From Carcharhinus amblyrhynchos (Eukaryota): a DNA stretch of 64,000 nucleotides. Under the pieces are notes generated by a model. That model saw only the letters and a program-made list of their open reading frames with translations. It made no database searches and was not told where the DNA came from. The stretch is taken from contig OZ336871.1 of NCBI GenBank assembly GCA_965287045.1, positions 66,278,001 through 66,342,000 of the forward strand, written 5' to 3'. Positions 10,797 through 42,694 of the stretch are shown in pieces; the first letter of the stretch is position 1; every line of letters begins with the position of its first letter. Both the position numbers and the translations under genes were made by a program.

Positions 10797-10844
10797 AATT
10801 TTAGGACACATGAATTTTAGGACACATGAATTTTAGGACACATG
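10797..10844. repeat. Tandem repeat (AATTTTAGGACACATG)x3
   Basis: Three perfect 16-bp copies. Confidence 0.95.
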
Positions 10845-21434: not shown

Positions 21435-22223
21435 TCAATCTCGGGAAGAGAGTCCCACCTCGAAACGAAACACCTTTGCAAAATGATTCCACTTTAAACA
21501 AGAGTTACATGTTTTCCCACAACTTGGACATGCTGCTGTGATTACGTTCATAACTTGGACACATTTCTGAGTGTATCTGACTGTGATGGGGCACATGTTG
21601 CTGAGACTGCTGATGTGCTTTTGTCCGTAACCGTTGCACATGAATTTGTTGGCTGTGTCTGCGATCCTGAATCTGAGAGTGTATACATTTGTGTCATCCC
21701 TTTTAATCAAACATGCTGGATTGGACCACCATGGTCCTGGATTTTCCAAGGTTAAGACATCATTTTCCATGAGGAAGTGTTCCTGAACTTGTGGAGTTGG
21801 AGCTTTCTCAATCAATTGGTCACAAATTAATCCGTAAGTTAGAGTGACAAATTCTCATGTAGAAGACAACTGCAGCAATACTGCCACATATTATTTTGTG
21901 GGCTCACCATTTCTTGGCGTTTTTGGCAGGATGTATTTTGTTTGATCATCACACTTTTCTTTGATCCAAAGTATCTGTTGAGAGCATTAATTACTGTATC
22001 AAATGTAGACATGTCTTTTGTGAAATGCTTGAATATTCACTGGTCTTGTGCTTTGAGATAATGCTCGAGTTTTGCCTTCTTGGGGGTCACTGCTACATCC
22101 AGGCTGTCCATCCATTTAATGAGCAAGTCGATCTTGAACCCCAAAATCCATCAATTCCAATTATAAATCTCTTGATGAAGGAAGGAAAGGTGCTGGAATC
22201 CGTAAGTTTAAAATATTCTCCAT
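21435..22223 (-). pseudogene. Gypsy gag pseudogene (capsid-like region + CCHC zinc knuckle)
   Basis: N-terminal MENILNLRIPAPFLPS after ATG at 22223; ORF 21435-21815 MIEK..PQVQEHFLMENDVLTLE and CPSCGKTCNSCLKWNHFAKV; stops and frameshifts. Confidence 0.8.
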
Positions 22224-27990: not shown

Positions 27991-30403
27991 GTGTCAGGAT
28001 TCCATTAGAAGAGTTATAACTCTATTTTCCCCTGAGTAGCTGGTCAGATTGACCATTTGCAGACTGTTGTCTGGGAAAGCCTGAGATACAAGCAGCATCC
28101 AGGTACTGTTGATCTATGAGGTTGAGGGAGGGTGGGGGAAGGAATGGTCACCAGTCAGATGGGAGCTAGAGATCACAGCAGATTTATTGAGAGGTTGTGA
28201 GAAACCAGTGCTCCAACCCCACTTGGCCCACAAGCAGTGCTGGATAAGCAGTAGCCTGCTGGCTTTGGCATCCCTTTGGGTGCCATGGTTCCTGAGCCTC
28301 ACGATGCCCAGATGCTACTACTAAATTTAAAACTGTGATAAAATCTGAGGAATGCAGTCTCATTTTAATACTGAAGTCACTGCCAGTCTCTCTGGAGCAG
28401 GTTACCTGGTCAACTCCAGATGAACCACAGCTAATCTAGAATTAGGTATGTTTTATGTTTTTTTAAATTGAGTTTTGTTCACATTTAATCTGTCCAGACC
28501 CTTCCCTGCGGTCATGGTCTTAAGATTAACCTTACAGAGCCCAAATTTGCATGTATTCACGTGACAACCATCTGCTTCTGGTAGGTGCCTCGGATGTTTA
28601 AACAATGTAACAGTTAAAGTATTGGTAGATATGAAATTGGCAGGAATGAGGCTGTAGGTCCACCCGTTACATTTTCACTCTGCTGCCACCCTGTTCTAGC
28701 TGGGCTGTGTGAATTTTAATAGCCCATAGCATGTTGTGTATGCAGATTGTGGTTGACAGTTGTTCAAGTTGCATTTGTTTAAGGTGATAACATTTGTGTT
28801 TAAGTAACACGTGGAACCATCTCAAAGCACACAATAAATTGCTTTTGAGGACTAAAGTTTATCACGGCAAGAAATCTCAAGTCAATAAATAAAATTCTTT
28901 AATGTTTCTTTATAAAAACGATAATGGTTTGGCATTTCCTCAGAGCTACTGCTAATCAGTGGCCATTTTCCACCTTAACTGGGCTTGCATGCAGAAACAG
29001 AATTTCCGTCGCACTTCTGACTTAGTTACAGCTTCAAATCTGAGCAAATGAACTCCCAATGCTTCTTCTGAAAAGCCCAAAGAATTGTCTACTTAAATTT
29101 TTAAATCTGACGCTATTTACTGCTTTTATTTTTGACCTAGGGTTCATCAGGTGTGTTCCATTACTCATTGGAACTATTCCTGGTGCGGCGCAGAGTGGTT
29201 ACCATCTGTAAGAATGATAGTCATTACATTACTTTAACATTGCTTTAATTGAAAGCATAAATCCCTCTGAATAGTCACTCTGCTTGCGATCTGCATCGTC
29301 TGACAGAAATGATCACGGGCTTAAAAAAATACCTCTTACAGATCCCCACACATCTTCCATCTCAACTTGCTGGGAGATTGCTAGAAAACTGCACCAATTT
29401 ACTGCTCCCAACTGCCTGATAATGGACACTTTACTGTACACTTTTCCTTCATTATGGCAGAGGTCATGGCTGTCGAGAAGGGTTCTGCCACATTTGACGG
29501 ATAGTCAGGTGCTGTCTAGATGAATGGCACTGACCACATGACCACTTAAAGCTATGCTTACCCTTTTCAACTCCCTTAAAGCTTTCAAAATGTCCTCTGA
29601 AAAAAAAAGTAATTTCTTTTTCTTTACACTGGCAGTGCAGAGGATAAAATTAATTGATTAAAAAAAATGAGTAAATGAGTACGATGCACCATTCCTGGAT
29701 GGCCAATACTTATTTATGATTCAAAAGCATGCACAATTTTAAAGAAATTTGATGCAGTTCATGACAAAAGATTAATTAAATTAAAGAGCATGGTATACAT
29801 CTAAATTAATTTGAACCTGTTATCCTTGAAAGGTACAAGGAAGTGTCCTGATTATTTAGGACCTTTTAACATGCTATGAACATATAAATGGTACATGTAA
29901 TAATTGTACCACTTACCAGAGGATGTTCAATTTCTATTGGGCAAATTTGTAAAGTGCTTGAAGGTGTGTACAGCCCAGTTATTCTACTCTTCTCTGGACT
30001 GGAATTCAGGCACAGGTCAAACATAGTACTGGAATTTATGTCAGAACTTAGATTATCTGATATCTGAAATAAAAGCAGAAAATGCTAGAAATACTAATGT
30101 AAGGAAGCATCAGTGGAGGGAGAAACAGAGTTAATGGCACTGGAAGGGCTGGGATTGACAGGGCGGAAGTGGAGGCAAAATGCAGGGTGAAGAGGAATAC
30201 CTTGGAGTGGGAGTCTCCCAGGATCACAGGGTGCTAGCTGCTACTGTGCAGCCAGGACACTTGGCACCAGCTTCCCCTTTCATGGGAAAGCTCGCAGTGG
30301 CTGCAGGAGGAAACCCTTAAGTCATGGCTAATTGGCCACTTAAGATTCTCAATTGGCCTATTGGCATACGAGGCACCCAATGGCTTCACTGCTGTGGGGA
30401 TCC

Positions 30404-30548
30404 TGGCTCTGCCAGCCCTTCTAGTGCCATGTTGAGGCTTTCCAGTCTGGCTCTGCCAGCCCTTCCAATACCTTGTTGAGGCATGCCAGTGTGGCTCTGC
30501 CAGCCTTTCCAGTGCCTTTGTTGAGGTGTGCCAGTCTGGCTCTGCCAA
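30404..30548. repeat. Minisatellite, ~44-bp unit x3.3
   Basis: Unit TGGCTCTGCCAGCCCTTCCAGTGCCTTGTTGAGGNNTGCCAGTC. Confidence 0.9.
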
Positions 30549-33655: not shown

Positions 33656-33718
33656 ATTTCTTCTTGGCCTTTTGGCTCAGATCAAGCCCAGGATAGGCTG
33701 CAATGCCTTATCTTGTTA
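33656..33718 (+). pseudogene. U2 snRNA-derived sequence, 5' part
   Basis: ATTTCTTCTTGGCCTTTTGGCTCAGATCAAG matches vertebrate U2 nt 1-31 (ATCGCTTCTCGGCCTTTTGGCTAAGATCAAG) at 27/31; diverges before the branch-recognition GTAGTA. Confidence 0.8.
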
Positions 33719-34036
33719 TAAAGAACAAAGAACAACCCAGCATGGGAAACAGGCCCTTCGGCCCAACGAGCCCGTGCCGCCGCATCACCCTACACCTATT
33801 CTACCCTGCGTGTCTACGAATGGAACCCCTAACTTAGCCAGATTCAGGGGAGAATAGTGTCAATTTGGTAAAACCAATCAGCCTAAGAGCACATCTTTGG
33901 GGTGTGGGAGGAAACCGGAGCGCCCGGAGGAAACCCACGCAACCACAGGGAGAATGTGCAAGCTCCCACAGACACAGACCCAAATCCATGTATCTGCACA
34001 GCTAGCAGTGCTAGTCACCGAGCTGTTGCGGTGCCC
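33719..34036 (-). mobile_element. V-SINE-derived 3' UTR segment of the LINE
   Basis: V-domain TTGCACATTCTCCCTGTGGTTGCGTGGGTTTCCTCCGGGCGCTCCGGTTTCCTCCCACACCCCAAAGATGTGC; degenerate head GGGCACCGCAACAGCTCGGTGACTAGCACTGCT; no B-box. Confidence 0.85.
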
Positions 34037-34239
34037 GTCTACCGGTCCAGGATCAAGCACACACACCGACACGAAGTACTAGGCCACTCCCGGAACCTCC
34101 AAGAGCAGCCCACGCACGACCCACCGTGTGCATGCCCCTCGTTTGACACGAGGTGGACTTCCACCTGCGGAATAAAAAGACAAAAAACGTTAATCTTACA
34201 AGCCTGCTTTTCCGGTGTCTCCTGAGGTTCCAACCTTAT

Positions 34240-35811
34240 TTAATAGCCCCTACCATAACCCTCCATCCTCGTTTCACCCATGTGTCTATCTAACTGAACC
34301 TTAAACGAGTCCAACGTTCCTGCCTCCACCACCCTACTCGGTAGCGCGTTCCATACCCCCACAACTCTCTGCGTAAAGAACCTTCCTCTCACTTCCAAAT
34401 TATACCTCTCCCTCCTCACCCTTAAATCACGACCTCTCGTGTTTGTACCCAGTCTAGGGAGCAGTCTCTCACTATTAACTCTATCTATTCCCTTCAGTAT
34501 CTTATATACCTCTATCATGTCCCCCCTCAATCTCCGTCTTTCCAAGGAGAATAGTCCCAGTTTCTCCAACCTTTCCTCGTAACCCAGCCCCTCCATGCCA
34601 GGCAACATCCTGGTAAACCTCCTCTGCACCCTTTCCAGAGCCTCCACGTCCTTCCGGTAGTAAGGTGACCAGAACTGGACGCAGTACTCCAAATGTGGTC
34701 TAACCAACGTTCTGTACAACTGAAGCATTAGACGGCAGCTTTTATACTCTATACCCCTTCCTATAAAGGCTAACATTCCATACGCCTTCCTAACAACATT
34801 CTCCACTTGTGTCGCAACCTTCATGGATTTGTGAACCTGCACTCCCAGGTCCCTCTGTATGTCTATACTCCTAATCTGTCTACCTTTTATCACATAGCTC
34901 CTCTCTGCATTATTCCTTCCAAAATGCATCACCTCGCATTTGTCAGGGTTAAATTCCATCTGCCACCTATCTGCCCAATGCACCAACCTATCTATATCCT
35001 GTTGTATCACCTGACAATCCAGTTCAGTAACCGCCAACCCTGCCATCTTGGTGTCATCAGCAAACTTGCTGATCACACCACCTACACTCTCTTCCAAGTC
35101 ATTTATGTATACTACAAAGAGGAGAGGTCCCAGTACTGAGCCCTGTGGCACACCACTGGTCACTGGCCTCCAGCCCGACAAGGTCCCCTCCACAACTACC
35201 CTCTGTCTCCTATTACCCAGCCAGTTCTCAATCCACCTAGCTACCTGGCCTCGTATCCCATGCGCCTTAACCTTTTCTACCAGCCTACCATGAGGGACTT
35301 TGTCAAACGCCTTACTGAAATCCATATAGATGACATCAACGGCTCTCCCATCGTCAACCGTTTTTGTCACCTCCTCAAAGAATTCCACCAGATTCGTAAG
35401 GCAAGACCTCCCTCTAACAAAGCCATGTTGCGTATCCCTAATCAAATCGCAACGCTCCAAATGCTCATACATCCTACCCCTAAGTATTTTTTCCATTAAT
35501 TTCCCTACCACCGATGTCAAACTCACCGGTCTATAATTTCCAGGGTTATCCCTACTACCTTTTTTGAACAGCGGTACTACATTTGCTACCCTCCAGTCCT
35601 CTGGGACCGCACCTGTGTCCAAAGAAGAGACAAAGATTTGCGCCAGAGGCCCAGCAATTTCATCTTTCACCTCCCTAAGCAGCCTGGGATAAATACCATC
35701 AGGCCCCGGAGCTTTATCCGTCCTTACGCTACCTAAAAGCCCTAGCACTTCCTCCCTCGTAATAGATATTTCCTGCCACTGATCCTCCGCTCCCTCCAAG
35801 AGAGACCGCAC
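34240..35811 (-). CDS. CR1 ORF2 C-terminal part: reverse transcriptase
   Basis: [74 protein letters not shown]; 523 aa without stops. Confidence 0.97.
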   Translation of the reverse strand: MRSLLEGAEDQWQEISITREEVLGLLGSVRTDKAPGPDGIYPRLLREVKDEIAGPLAQIFVSSLDTGAVPEDWRVANVVPLFKKGSRDNPGNYRPVSLTSVVGKLMEKILRGRMYEHLERCDLIRDTQHGFVRGRSCLTNLVEFFEEVTKTVDDGRAVDVIYMDFSKAFDKVPHGRLVEKVKAHGIRGQVARWIENWLGNRRQRVVVEGTLSGWRPVTSGVPQGSVLGPLLFVVYINDLEESVGGVISKFADDTKMAGLAVTELDCQVIQQDIDRLVHWADRWQMEFNPDKCEVMHFGRNNAERSYVIKGRQIRSIDIQRDLGVQVHKSMKVATQVENVVRKAYGMLAFIGRGIEYKSCRLMLQLYRTLVRPHLEYCVQFWSPYYRKDVEALERVQRRFTRMLPGMEGLGYEERLEKLGLFSLERRRLRGDMIEVYKILKGIDRVNSERLLPRLGTNTRGRDLRVRRERYNLEVRGRFFTQRVVGVWNALPSRVVEAGTLDSFKVQLDRHMGETRMEGYGRGY

Positions 35812-37100
35812 GATTCCGAACCCCTCTCCTTCGGGAATACTGACGCAAAGTATTCATTCAGGAGCTCCCCCATTCCCTCCGACTCAATACATAACTCCCC
35901 ACTTTTGTCCCTAAGAGGACCAATTTTCCCTCTAACCACTCTCTTGCTCCTAATATAGGAATAAAATGCCTTTGGATTTTCCTTAATCCTACCAGCCAAA
36001 GCCATTTCATGCCCTCTCTTCTCCCTTCTAATTCCCCTTTTTAGCTCCCTCCTACTCTCTCTATATTCCTCCAGCGCACTCTCCGTACCCAGTCGTTTCG
36101 ACCTAACATACACCTCCCTCTTCTTCCTGACCAAGTCTTCAATACCCCCTGTAATCCACGGCTCTCCAATCCTACCTTTCCCATCCTTCCGCTTAACTGG
36201 AACATACCTCCCCTGCAACCATTTCATTTTGCCCTTAAAAGCTTCCCACTTGCCAACCGTGGACTTTCCAGCTGACAGTCCCTCCCAATCAGTGTCCTGC
36301 AGCTCCCTCCTAATCCTGCCATAGCTCGCCTTTCCCCAGTTCAGCACACTCCCGTTCGGCCGGCACTCGTCCCTTTCCATTTTTATCCTAAAGTAGACGG
36401 ACTTGTGGTCACTGTTAGCCACATGTTCGCCTACCTCTACCTCACCCACCTGCCCTGGCTCATTACCCAACACTAAATCCAGTATAGCCCCTTCCCTACT
36501 CGGGCTAGTTACATACTGCTCCAGCGACCCTTCCAAAACACATTTCACAAACTCCTCTCCCTCTGTACCCCCAGCTCTAGGCCCCCTCCAATTCACTCCA
36601 GGAAGATTAAAGTCACCCACTACAACCACTCTATTCTTCCTGCACCTATCCAAAATGCCCCTGCAAATGCCTTCCTCCACTGACCTCGGGCTGTTGGGTG
36701 GCCTATAATACACCCCTAGCAACGTAATCTCTCCCTTTTTATTCCTCAACTCCACCCACAGTGACTCAATCCCTGTCTCTTCCATATCGTCCTCCCTCTG
36801 CACTACTGTGATGTTTTCCTTTACTAACAGTGCCACCCCTCCACCTCTCTTCAACCCTCCTCTGTCACACCTAAAACACTTGTACCCAGGAACATTCAGC
36901 TGCCAGTCCTGCCCTTCCCGTAACCACGTCTCCGTTACAGCCACCACATCTAACTGCCTCACAAACATCAAGGCCCTAAGCTCATCCGTTTTCCCTGCCA
37001 CACTCCTAGCATTGAAACAGACACAGTTCAACCCATGAGTGTCCCTCGGAACCTCCTTCTCCCTGATAATTTTCCTTTCACCCGACCCTCTCCCAGCCAC
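35742..37100 (-). CDS. CR1 ORF2 N-terminal part: APE-like endonuclease + tether (frameshift near 35810; no AUG start)
   Basis: CFNARS, VTETWL, GGGVALLV, GVYYRPP, VGDFNLP, LDLVL, SDH catalytic motifs; PWIT and NEYFASVF. Confidence 0.95.
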   Translation of the reverse strand: MAGRGSGERKIIREKEVPRDTHGLNCVCFNARSVAGKTDELRALMFVRQLDVVAVTETWLREGQDWQLNVPGYKCFRCDRGGLKRGGGVALLVKENITVVQREDDMEETGIESLWVELRNKKGEITLLGVYYRPPNSPRSVEEGICRGILDRCRKNRVVVVGDFNLPGVNWRGPRAGGTEGEEFVKCVLEGSLEQYVTSPSREGAILDLVLGNEPGQVGEVEVGEHVANSDHKSVYFRIKMERDECRPNGSVLNWGKASYGRIRRELQDTDWEGLSAGKSTVGKWEAFKGKMKWLQGRYVPVKRKDGKGRIGEPWITGGIEDLVRKKREVYVRSKRLGTESALEEYRESRRELKRGIRREKRGHEMALAGRIKENPKAFYSYIRSKRVVRGKIGPLRDKSGELCIESEGMGELLNEYFASVFPKERGSESCGLSWRERRISGRKYLLRGRKC

Positions 37101-37120
37101 CTCCCCACCCCCCTTCCCTA

Positions 37121-38014
37121 TTAGTTTAAACCATTCCTGAACACCCCAGCTAACCTCCCCGCTAAGACACTAGTTCCCCTCCCGTTCAAATTCTCCCCAC
37201 CCCTCCTGTACAGTTGCCCTTCTCTCCTAAACACCTCCCAGTGATCCACAAAAGTAAAGCCCTCTACCCTATACCAATCCCTCAGCCATGCATTCAACTG
37301 CATGATCTCGTCATTCTTTGCCCTGCTAATACTGGGCAGCAACCCAGAGAGTGCCACCCTGGAGGTCCTGCTCTTTAGTTTAGACCCCAACTCCCTAAAT
37401 TGCCTACGGACCTCTACCCTACTCCTCCTTCCTATGTCCCCCTCCCCTACGTGTACTATGACCTCTGCCTGTGCCCCCTCCCCTTTCAAAATTCCCTCTA
37501 CCCTGTCCGTTACATTCTTTACCCCTGCTCCAGGGAGGCAGACTACCATCCTGGTGTCGCGCCTCTGTCCACAGAACCTCTTATCAATACCTCGGACCCT
37601 CCCATCCCCTACCACTATCACCTTGCCAGCCCCCTTCTGTCCCTCTAAGTCAGTCTCCCCCTCCTGCCTATCTTTCTGTGCCCCTGTCGACGAACCTTGA
37701 GGGGCCTCCGGGGAGGCCGGGGGACCCTGACTACTCTTCTTCTTCCTCTTTCCCCTCCTAACAGTCGTCCACCCTTCCTGCTCTTCAGCCCTTGGGACCT
37801 CTTCCTGCTCGTGGCTCCTAGCCATCAACTCCTCGTTTTCCCTGACTAGAAACGCATCCTCCAAACGCCCCTCGAGTTGCCTGACCCGGGCCCTCAAGCA
37901 CTGCAGTTCTAAACATTTACTGTAGATGTGGACCTTGGGGACACGCGACACCACCAAGAACTCCCACATGTAGCACCTGACACAACTTATATTCCTCCCT
38001 ATATTCCCTGCCAT
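37121..38014 (-). CDS. CR1 ORF1p: zinc finger/coiled coil + SGNH esterase-like domain
   Basis: ATG at 38014; CVRCYMWEF..HIYSKC, heptads LRARVRQLEGRL, WTTVRRGKRKKK, VIVVGDG, CLPGA, VHVGEGD, SGLLP, LNAWL, ends GLN*. Confidence 0.92.
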   Translation of the reverse strand: MAGNIGRNISCVRCYMWEFLVVSRVPKVHIYSKCLELQCLRARVRQLEGRLEDAFLVRENEELMARSHEQEEVPRAEEQEGWTTVRRGKRKKKSSQGPPASPEAPQGSSTGAQKDRQEGETDLEGQKGAGKVIVVGDGRVRGIDKRFCGQRRDTRMVVCLPGAGVKNVTDRVEGILKGEGAQAEVIVHVGEGDIGRRSRVEVRRQFRELGSKLKSRTSRVALSGLLPSISRAKNDEIMQLNAWLRDWYRVEGFTFVDHWEVFRREGQLYRRGGENLNGRGTSVLAGRLAGVFRNGLN

Positions 38015-38170
38015 GTCCCAACCTCCTGTATGTGGCAAAAGGTAGAAATCTGTCACTCACCTTCTCTAAGCCTGCTCTCGCCCAAGCCCAGTGAGCCAAA
38101 GCCCTTCTCACTCAGTTCCCACTCACTCCGCTGCCCGCTCCCGACGCTGCCCGCTGTGTGCTGCTACCCC

Positions 38171-38265
38171 TTTTTTATACCCCCCGCACCCCCTTAACGA
38201 CTATCCCCTCGCCTAACTTCCGGTACGGAAGTAAACTACACTCACAAGCCCCGAGAACCGGAAGT
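38171..38265 (-). promoter_or_regulatory. Candidate internal Pol II promoter of the LINE (three ETS sites + TATA)
   Basis: ACTTCCGG 38216-38223, CGGAAGT 38226-38232, ACCGGAAGT 38257-38265; TATAAAAAA on the minus strand 38179-38171; CpG-rich. Confidence 0.55.
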
Positions 38266-38344
38266 ACAGGAAAAAAGCGGTTTTCAATTCAAATCAGTCA
38301 CTCACCACAGCCACAGCCACCAGGTTCAATGCTCCGGAGAACAA

Positions 38345-38452
38345 TGTTAACTTGGATCTTGTTTGTCTCTCTTGTGGGGACAAAGTGGGGATTTTGAATT
38401 TGTTTTTTTACAGCAAGCAAGGAATGGATTTGTATTTGCCCGGTCCATTCTG
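38345..38452 (+). pseudogene. U2 snRNA-derived sequence, 3' part (continuation after the LINE)
   Basis: Hairpin TGTCTCTcttgtGGGGACA (cf. U2 stem IIb GTCCTCtatccGAGGAC), T-rich Sm-like tract, then CAGCAAGCAAGGAAT...TTGCCCGGTCCATTC (cf. U2 GAGCAGGGAGATGGAAT...TTGCTCCGTCCACTC). Confidence 0.55.
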
Positions 38453-40844: not shown

Positions 40845-41680
40845 ATTTATTCACACATTAGTATACAGTAAAAAATATTGTTTCTTGCACGCTATACAGA
40901 CAAATCATACTGTTTATAGAGAAGGAATGGAGAGAGTGCAGACATGTTACAGTCATAGCTAGGATGTAGAGAAAGATTAACTTAATGCACGGTAGGTTCA
41001 TTCAAAAGTCTGAGGACAGCAGGGAAGAAGCTGTTCTTGAGTCGGTTGGTATGTCTCCTCAAACTTTTGTATTTTTTTCCTGACGAAAGAAAGTGTAGGA
41101 GAGTATGTCCGGGGTGCGTGGGATCCTTAATTACGCTGGCTGCTTTTCCAAGGCAGCGGGATGTGTAGACAGTATCAATGGGTGGGAGGCTGGTTTGAGT
41201 GATGGACTGGGCTTCGTTCACGAGTCTTTGTAGTTTCTTGTGGTCTTGGGTGGAGCAGGAGCCATACCAAGCTGTGATACAACCGGAAAGAATGCTTTCT
41301 GTGGTGCATCTGTAAAAGTTGGCGAGAGTCATAGTGGACATGCCAAATTTTCTTAGTCTTCTGAGAAAGTAGAGGTGTTGGTGGGCTTTCTTAACTATAC
41401 TGCTGGCAGGGAGGGACCAGGACAGGTTGTTGATGATCTGGACGTCTAAAAACTTGAAGCTCTCGACTATTCCTACTTTGTCTCCATTGATGTAGATAGG
41501 GCATGTTCTCCACTATGCTTCCTGAAGCTGATGACAATCTCCTTCGTTTTGTTAATATTGAGGGGAGATTATTGTTGCTGCTCCAGTTCACCAGATTCCC
41601 TATCTCTTTCCTGCACTTTGTCTCATCATTGTTTGAAATCTGACTCACTACAGTGATATCATCAGCAAACTTGAAAATCG
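40845..41680 (-). mobile_element. Rex1/Babar-clade LINE 3' fragment
   Basis: KFADD at the 5' edge; ORF 40982-41341 FYRCTTESILSGCITAWYG...HPGHTLLHFLSSGKKYKSL..TNRLKNSFFP. Confidence 0.9.
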
Positions 41681-42694
41681 AATCGGGGTTGAATTTGATT
41701 CAGTTTCAATGGTGTTACATTCATTAGGTAATGGATCTTTCTACCATGTTACCCCTGTGATGACAACCCAGTTGACACCATTTCTCTTCCCTGACTTCTG
41801 ATTCAGAGTGAAATCATAAAACTGAAGTCTCAGGAGAATGCAGTTTTAATGGTGCTGTGCGCAGATTTTCCTTGTAGATGTGCTCCAGTGGATAATAATT
41901 CCCAGGGCCTCTCTGAGTTTTACTGTTAGATATTGCCTAGATTGGTCCAGAGGTAACTGGCAAGTTGCCTCAGGCAGGCTGACAAGTGCTTGCAGCCAGC
42001 TGGAATTATTCAGAGAAGGCCGTGGCTCAAATTTTGGATAAGCCTTGAGGCTACTGCCCTGGCATGTGCAGCGAGTGCACTGGTTGCTTCTAGCCCAAGA
42101 GTGGGTCAGGAGAGATTTCTCCTTCAGGAAATTAAAGCAGTGTGAACCTGTGTGTTGGCAGCAATGTTTATGCTGACAATAAAAAGGTAACACTTCTTAA
42201 AATCAAAATATTCAATTTATAAACAAATACTTCTCATCTGTTTGTATTCATGAGCATATAATAAATAGAATAATTGATTAGCAAGATGCCAATTTGTACA
42301 TTACTCATGAGAGAGACCTGTGTAATTCAATCATGAAGTAAAAATCTATATCTCACTCCTCATCATCTATTATCCTATTACTCTAATGAAAATCATAGTT
42401 CTGTGATGCAGCGAAATCAAAACATTAAAAAGTCTGTGATTACAGATGAATCATGTGCTCATTACTGGGAACAGCTTTTCTACCCAAGAATTTTCCACTT
42501 CACAATTATAAAGCCAAATAGACATTTTTGAATCAGTATTTTGAATGTGTTCTGTCTGCTGTTTCTTGATACAGCTATTGTCATATTGCCCCATACAACT
42601 GGTGATATCAGCATTCAGAGAAAACTTCAAATTTCTGAATTTTTACTTCCAGATCCTTTCTCTTTGCTCTGCTCTCCAGAAGAAACTGTGACTT

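Follow-up and report, generated by a model that had tools for sequence, protein, structure and literature searches.

In retroviruses, a donor in the leader and a distal acceptor bracket the coding sequence, and the unspliced RNA is the template for replication. Among long interspersed nuclear elements (LINEs), human L1 gives rise to spliced integrated retrotransposed elements (SpIREs) which, according to the accessible text of Larson et al. 2018 (PMC5860796), amount to about 1.8% of full-length L1, are missing parts of the 5′ untranslated region (UTR) or the start of the first open reading frame (ORF1), and are mobilised mostly in cis. Functional splice sites were reported in the zebrafish ZfL2 LINEs by Tamura, Kajikawa and Okada 2007, as told by the title of that paper and by the sentence citing it in PMC3091869. 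Persaeus, a short internally deleted element (SIDE) from CR1 Zenon, is explained in the accessible part of PMC6740152 by deletion at direct repeats, with no mention of splicing, and it amplifies as a family. Here we describe a LINE copy of the CR1 type on the minus strand of a 64,000-nt stretch of the genome of Carcharhinus amblyrhynchos (GCA_965287045.1, contig OZ336871.1, positions 66,278,001 to 66,342,000; hereafter the window), in which both ORFs lie between a donor in the 5′ UTR and an acceptor in the 3′ UTR. As the RNA of a LINE is its template, LINEs would be expected to avoid introns, and the known splice sites of L1 have been explained as passengers of promoter or coding sequence. Our literature search, with most subscription papers and Repbase outside its scope, found no report of this layout in a CR1, which is not proof of absence.

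An intron around both ORFs and its spliced genomic copies

Both ORFs of the element sit in one conserved GT-AG intron, 14 spliced copies in the genome are likely dead ends copied in trans, and the signals are most likely kept because binding of splicing factors aids the unspliced RNA; to this reading as a whole we give a probability of about 0.5. The intron exists, is conserved and is sometimes excised, and its product has been inserted into the genome, whereas the reason for its conservation is one that we infer.

An earlier note on this DNA had described two donors within a duplicated 16-mer (38306-38291 and 38061-38046), a branch-like TTAAC, a pyrimidine tract, an acceptor, and a spacing of only 35 nt between donor 2 and the nearest AG (38026), and all of these are present where it placed them, the two 16-mers being 94% alike. 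In the window copy alone, the splice motifs are no better than chance, with 3 G/GTRAGY donors (the slash marks the splice point) against 3.34 expected from 300 shuffles and 1 strong acceptor against 0.26 expected (P(≥1) = 0.22). We judge them to be real because they are conserved across subfamilies and because of the 14 spliced genomic copies. Splicing from donor 1 would give an RNA of 41+445 nt, in agreement with the size of about 0.5 kb that the note had predicted, while donor 2 would give 731 nt, for which that prediction does not hold.

All genome searches covered the 2.9-Gb genome carrying the window, whose element belongs to subfamily A. The literal junction strings of the earlier note had no match, partly since they are off-family at position 34159, an A private to the window copy where 29 of 29 other copies have G. 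Corrected A-type junctions for both donors had no match either, against 1,743 exact unspliced acceptors. Open-ended patterns, in which a donor could be joined to anything, gave three matches for donor 2 (a variant 5′ UTR, a chance match and an 11-nt deletion) and six A-type matches for donor 1 (four with an extra repeat unit and two from one inversion source), none of them spliced. Two loci, L157 and L161, are insertions with different 3′ flanks that have about 950 nt in common, made up of host sequence, an exon 1 in inverted orientation and the final 115 nt of the element; the inverted exon 1 ends at, or at most 2 nt from, donor 1, and this small chimeric unit was copied at least twice.

An all-subfamily pattern, built on the exon ends and the conserved start of exon 2 with gaps of 2-25 nt, gave 52 matches, of which 48 loci were inspected and 4 were judged unspliced from the matched string. 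Fourteen independent copies have exon 1 joined exactly from donor 1 to the acceptor; they are about 0.49 kb long (485–498 nt when complete), have lost both ORFs, and have flanks unrelated to one another. Twelve belong to subfamily B (L207, L215, L222, L227, L233-235, L237-240 and L242), and two (L236 and L241) to a lineage nearer the window element (D/E-like). No exon-1 copy with any other register was found within the gap range, and one locus that resembles a spliced copy (L220) was set aside, being a truncation into a short interspersed nuclear element (SINE). These counts are lower bounds, as the patterns were exact and at least 5 nt of exon 1 was required. The genomic check that the earlier note had proposed thus fails with its own strings and succeeds with the all-subfamily pattern, which bears out its suggestions that a 5′ UTR donor spliced to the 3′ UTR acceptor removes both ORFs and that the short spliced RNA can be mobilised, in sister lineages and with no spliced copy found within the window's own subfamily.

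The matching unspliced acceptor pattern has 9,057 matches. With subfamily shares from a hand count of the first 100 of them (17% B, 28% A and 16% A2), the spliced share is about 12 of 1,540 in B (about 0.8%) against 0 of about 2,540 in A (Fisher p 9e-6), and no spliced copy was found among the approximately 4,000 of A and A2 together. Contigs of runs not recorded as RNA, aligned to subfamily A, contained no donor-acceptor joint, neither among the 15 of 42 joints listed for X1, X2, X3 and X6, nor among the 8 of 8 joints and 24 of 299 loose ends listed for X1, X3, X4 and X5. One X3 joint (38235-38316) ends at an AG, with a 5′ side that mismatches donor 1.

Foreign DNA precedes the acceptor in 12 matches, 10 of which start at 34164-34170. 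Ordinary 5′ truncation would be expected to give about 8-18 such starts (hand estimate from the rate in 80 copies), so that these copies show no excess, fit ordinary truncation, and give no sign of host-exon chimeras at the acceptor. Three copies truncated at the acceptor (L065, L066 and L070) carry short inverted extensions of a hairpin straddling the start of exon 2, which suggests fold-back of the complementary DNA.

Conservation of the splice signals

The subfamilies compared are only 75-87% identical. Donor 1 is intact in 36 of 37 A/A2 copies and is kept in all five subfamilies where it was seen (A, A2, B, C and E). Full-length B copies, 77-79% identical to the window element, keep both donors; between A and B, positions +1 to +6 of donor 1 are 100% identical and the next 54 nt 52%, and at donor 2 the identity of 83-100% drops to 33-35% past +6. 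Donor 2 is present in A, A2, B, E and H, is degenerate in C, and is replaced in 7 element copies, one amplified (active) A sub-lineage among them. With these losses, and with no donor 2 junction in the A-type and all-subfamily searches, the role of partner to the distal acceptor that the earlier note had given to donor 2 is not upheld. The likeness of the 16-mers beyond GGTGAGT does not extend to B, E and H, and the AG 35 nt after donor 2 is not kept in B.

At the acceptor, CAG/G is 100% identical among 4 subfamilies, compared with 44% on the intron side and 77-88% in the conserved blocks of exon 2, and it is kept by diverged relatives among the inspected loci. In 40 copies of six further subfamilies, chosen by a CAG-containing pattern so that the AG itself is present by construction, the tract has 11-15 pyrimidines per 16, and YTRAY is found at −26 to −29 in 29 of the 40, with letters that differ by lineage and with H lacking the motif. 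Conservation of the sites across copies, which the earlier note had proposed to test, is therefore confirmed for donor 1 and the acceptor. Since donor, branch, tract and acceptor have all survived about 25% divergence in non-coding sequence, and work, something selects for an intron around the whole coding region.

Subfamily B has more U-rich sequence after donor 1 (50% vs 40%) and a TACTAAT-like branch, which may explain why it is leakier than A/A2. Subfamily B also offers donor 1 a well-formed acceptor close by, 83 nt downstream (L192 and L197; about nt 32-115 of the element), at a place where the window subfamily has AC instead of AG. A strong AG/GTAAG donor just past the ORF1 stop was observed in B, C and H (L193, L195, L197, L272, L281 and L202; homologous to 37091) and is absent from A, A2 and E; if spliced to the 3′ acceptor, this donor would yield a message with ORF1 only.

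Origin, fate and shape of the spliced copies

In a tree of 72 exon-2 sequences (200 bootstraps, not fully settled; L204 is a long outlier), the spliced label needs 10 changes in the best tree, at least 4 of which are forced by well-supported branches, and a single origin of the spliced copies appears in 0 of 200 bootstrap trees. The label shows mild clustering, with a change count this low in 15 of 500 shuffles, since most spliced copies fall in a younger B branch, beside unspliced copies, and the nearest neighbour of a spliced copy is unspliced in 9 of 13 scored and tied in 1. Spliced copies arose repeatedly from LINE transcripts and, interleaved as they are with unspliced ones, look like repeated dead ends, likely not a new parasite or SINE family. 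The earlier proposal that the spliced RNA founded a self-propagating SINE-like family is thus largely refuted, and we consider it very improbable: spliced copies do exist, they end in the 3′ tail shared with the partner LINE, and 4 of 14 reach the 5′ end of the RNA, but there are only 14 of them to set against the unspliced matches, the tree shows no amplification from source copies of their own, and a promoter-like stretch lies inside the intron. Their 5′ end is LINE exon 1 and not a head with its own RNA polymerase III promoter (A and B boxes), the embedded tRNA-like head being internal and without the B-box stretch; as the intron takes with it the stretch of 5′ UTR with the TATA-like box, the copies are predicted to be silent. 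It is even harder to credit that the joined copies arose by template switching or by deletion during repair at 3-4 nt of microhomology (G/GT); the junction ends do share GGT (B) or GGTG (D-like), but 14 independent events in two lineages used one GT-AG register, with none at other registers within the searched gaps.

Exon junction complexes are deposited about 20-24 nt upstream of splice junctions. The retained exon 1 of the spliced copies measures 7-20 nt in 10 of 14 and 30-37 nt in the other 4, with none between, while in an unbiased sample 8 of 8 unspliced A copies reaching exon 1 keep it whole (Fisher p 0.002, comparing different subfamilies). One unspliced E copy (L260) is likewise cut within exon 1, and the gap at 21-29 nt alone is weak (p about 0.05). 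A block to reverse transcriptase (RT) by the exon junction complex would give such short remnants, which hints that spliced RNAs serve RT badly as templates close to the junction.

Why the splice signals are kept

In the reading that we prefer, the unspliced RNA is both message and template, as shown by the 9,057 unspliced acceptor matches, and a cap-proximal U1 site together with a terminal branch and acceptor (U2/U2AF) would recruit factors that help the retained-intron RNA to be transcribed, to remain stable or to be handled at its 3′ end. Splicing that runs to completion would then be a leak, yielding a non-coding RNA of exon 1, the structured segment, the captured SINE and the tail; this RNA can be inserted because the tail is retained and, as both of its ORFs are spliced out, would have to be mobilised in trans, presumably by the element's own RT via the shared tail. 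The leak may have been brought under detection in A/A2, the largest lineage, without loss of the motifs. Motif retention does not depend on visible completed splicing, given the intact motifs of A/A2, and recruitment of factors is favoured because the motifs are intact in the very lineage in which no trace of completed splicing is seen. L1 G98U99, in the accessible text of PMC5860796, is a precedent for a donor that is retained for the sake of expression in spite of its cost. Several points nevertheless weigh against this reading. The window's own subfamily yields no direct proof of splicing, the comparison of B with A/A2 takes its shares from the hand count above, and a regulated off-switch would predict an identical genomic record if splicing were somatic. 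Coupling to a terminal exon is uncertain, as the 3′ end is a tandem-repeat tail and no polyadenylation signal was identified. Evasion of HUSH by means of the splice sites, one form that factor recruitment could take, is not favoured, given that a spliced stuffer flanked by splice sites gave no protection from HUSH in the accessible part of PMC8770142.

Such an off-switch, the main rival to our reading and likely mostly somatic, would discard both ORFs, perhaps giving a tail-bearing decoy, while the germline retains the intron. That the branch motif is held at a fixed distance points to selection for splicing as such, the 14 copies prove splicing, more than 99% of germline-derived copies are unspliced, and a cell-type-specific suppression of L1 splicing is raised as a speculation by Larson et al. 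in the accessible text (PMC5860796); we still find the off-switch doubtful, because selection on the element should purge a self-destructive site unless a host-level benefit is strong. A retrovirus-style regulated intron retention, with a selected intron that holds both ORFs, splicing as an off-switch that gives a structured, tail-bearing RNA, and fossils that record the exon junction complex stopping RT about 20 nt before the junction, can be entertained tentatively and, if true, would make splicing a direct, repeatable route to bipartite SINE-like elements. Alternatively, the motifs could be kept for a reason other than splicing (a transcription-factor site or RNA structure), with splicing as a by-product, as argued for human L1, where the donor lies within a RUNX3 site (accessible text of PMC5860796). 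Exon 1 and exon 2 are conserved in their own right, and donor 2, never seen spliced, is conserved in five subfamilies; we regard this explanation as unlikely, since the tract and the branch change in their letters (44% identity) but not in class or spacing, which suits a spliceosome code better than one DNA-binding site. Less likely again, selection would act on the spliced 0.49-kb RNA itself, as a structured non-coding RNA that helps or regulates the element. Exon 2 is conserved as well as or better than ORF2 (77-88% vs 78%) and folds well (z −3.4 for 34164-33980), but it doubles as the 3′ UTR of the full-length RNA, so that its conservation is not specific to the spliced form; covariation is minimal (a double change in 1 of 58 pairs), and the most numerous lineage is without spliced copies. 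A peptide from exon 2 was rejected, for although 44-63 codons are open in most copies, changes fall 5/6/3 by codon position, as against 85 of 142 at third positions in the ORF2 control.

Architecture of the element and its surroundings

The coordinates of the features are collected in Table 1. ORF2 matches the Pfam families Exo_endo_phos (E 2e-14) and RVT_1 (E 4e-34). ORF1 has matches to OSK/GDSL profiles, its best solved-structure match is PDB 4C1B (E 1.7e-17), which we take to be the ZfL2-1 ORF1 esterase, and its named relatives are from rays, a skate and a shark. Apurinic/apyrimidinic (AP) endonuclease and RT in ORF2, an esterase in ORF1, a short tandem-repeat common 3′ end and frequent 5′ truncation are those of the CR1 group, a provisional label (versus the L2 clade) that comes from architecture and RT motifs. 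The tandem tail is shared by 30 of 30 copies; complete copies elsewhere start sharply at the homologue of 38346, and 8 of 80 copies sampled in genome order reach the 5′ end. Contigs from 4 of 4 runs connect the two LINE flanks (33716-38351). The captured SINE is presumably of the V-SINE/HE1 type.

Table 1. Features of the LINE copy, in window coordinates
Feature	Coordinates	Strand	Basis or remark
Full-length CR1-type LINE copy, subfamily A	33720..38346	-	Sharp 5′ end, GTTCTTT-type tandem tail
Exon 1, 41 nt	38306..38346	-	Joined to 3′ exon in spliced copies of sister subfamilies
Donor 1 (GTGAGT), donor in actual use	38300..38305	-	GT at 38305
GT-AG intron, 4,141 nt (most of 5′ UTR, ORF1 and ORF2)	34165..38305	-	Homologous interval precisely absent from 14 genomic copies
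TATA-like box in 5′ UTR (candidate)	38172..38179	-	Kept in A, A2, C, E, H; TACA in B
Donor 2 (AAG/GTGAGT)	38055..38060	-	GT at 38060; spliced product not found; lost in an A sub-lineage, degenerate in C
ORF1, 297 aa, SGNH/GDSL esterase-like domain	37121..38014	-	Profile and structure-library matches
ORF2, AP endonuclease and RT	34240..37169	-	Frameshift near 35800 breaks ORF2 in window copy
Branch-like TTAAC (34193-34189, A at 34190), pyrimidine tract, CAG acceptor (AG 34166-34165)	34165..34193	-	Motif reading and conservation
Start of exon 2, conserved non-coding segment, predicted long hairpins	34035..34164	-	77% mean identity among 4 subfamilies
Captured SINE: tRNA-like head minus B-box stretch, central domain	33870..34034	-	Aligned to three free SINE copies found elsewhere in the window
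Conserved 3′ tail and tandem repeat, presumed RT recognition end	33720..33774	-	Role inferred from known CR1/L2-SINE pairs

Some copies (L033, L038, L040, L050, L060, L085, L108 and L158; window 38346-38148) carry a tandem 5′ monomer of about 190-207 nt, reminiscent of the monomers of mouse L1, whose terminal TATA box lies about 30 nt ahead of the point where the next unit sharply begins. Copies with a single unit are without this upstream TATA, and the monomer layout does not explain how they would retain a promoter through retrotransposition. The monomer joint is also present in contigs of X3 and X5.

The flanks of the LINE (33656-33719 and 38347-38420, plus strand) contain about 31 nt of the 5′ end of U2 small nuclear RNA (Rfam E 0.003, under the gathering score), followed by non-U2 sequence, so the host sequence is possibly a U2-headed repeat; no second copy of this flank was seen among the inspected loci, and the Rfam scan had no match inside the element. 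Elsewhere in the window there are a probable RT-end fragment of another LINE clade (40982-41699, minus strand), a gag-like fragment (21435-21854, minus strand), two tandem arrays (44-nt x3.3 at 30403-30547 and 16-nt x3 at 10797-10844), and numerous older fragments of CR1 elements and SINEs. Four H copies that are nearly identical and have one common flank (L271-L274; C1, 5.33-5.52 Mb) represent a local tandem or segmental duplication.

Comparison with known systems

The difference between B, which leaks 0.8%, and A/A2, with none detected, offers a natural comparison for the tuning of intron retention. Splicing is here a route to non-autonomous elements, and the family places thousands of portable strong acceptors in the host genome. 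The pair of RNAs is like that of retroviruses in its leader donor and distal acceptor around the coding region and in its unspliced template, and differs in that the spliced product has no conserved ORF and the element no long terminal repeats.

The zebrafish ZfL2 elements are likewise fish LINEs with functional splice sites, and their layout may overlap with that of the window; relative to what the title and the citing sentence tell of them, conservation across subfamilies and processed genomic copies are what the present analysis shows. Like SIDEs and Persaeus, as given in the accessible part of PMC6740152, the spliced copies join CR1 5′ and 3′ ends without the coding middle and have repeated origins, but here the join is a GT-AG splice and no amplification as a family followed. 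With HE1/V-SINE of elasmobranchs and zebrafish, in the accessible part of PMC2911107, they share the content of exon 2, in which an entire copy of the tRNA-headed SINE common in the window is followed by the LINE tail; in contrast, the captured head is without the B-box stretch and the spliced RNA begins with the LINE leader.

The spliced copies work like the SpIREs of human L1, as far as the accessible text of PMC5860796 describes these. Both are retrotransposed spliced LINE RNAs from one 5′ UTR donor, both are rare (about 1.8% there and about 0.8% of B here) and both are dead ends; precise GT-AG removal of LINE sequence is seen in B and the D/E-like lineage, not in the window subfamily, and the copies are rare and non-propagating, with a probable loss of transcription. 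SpIREs in the strict sense are derived from L1 and retain ORF2, whereas here the acceptor lies in the non-coding 3′ UTR with a conserved branch and tract, both ORFs are lost, and mobilisation would be in trans.

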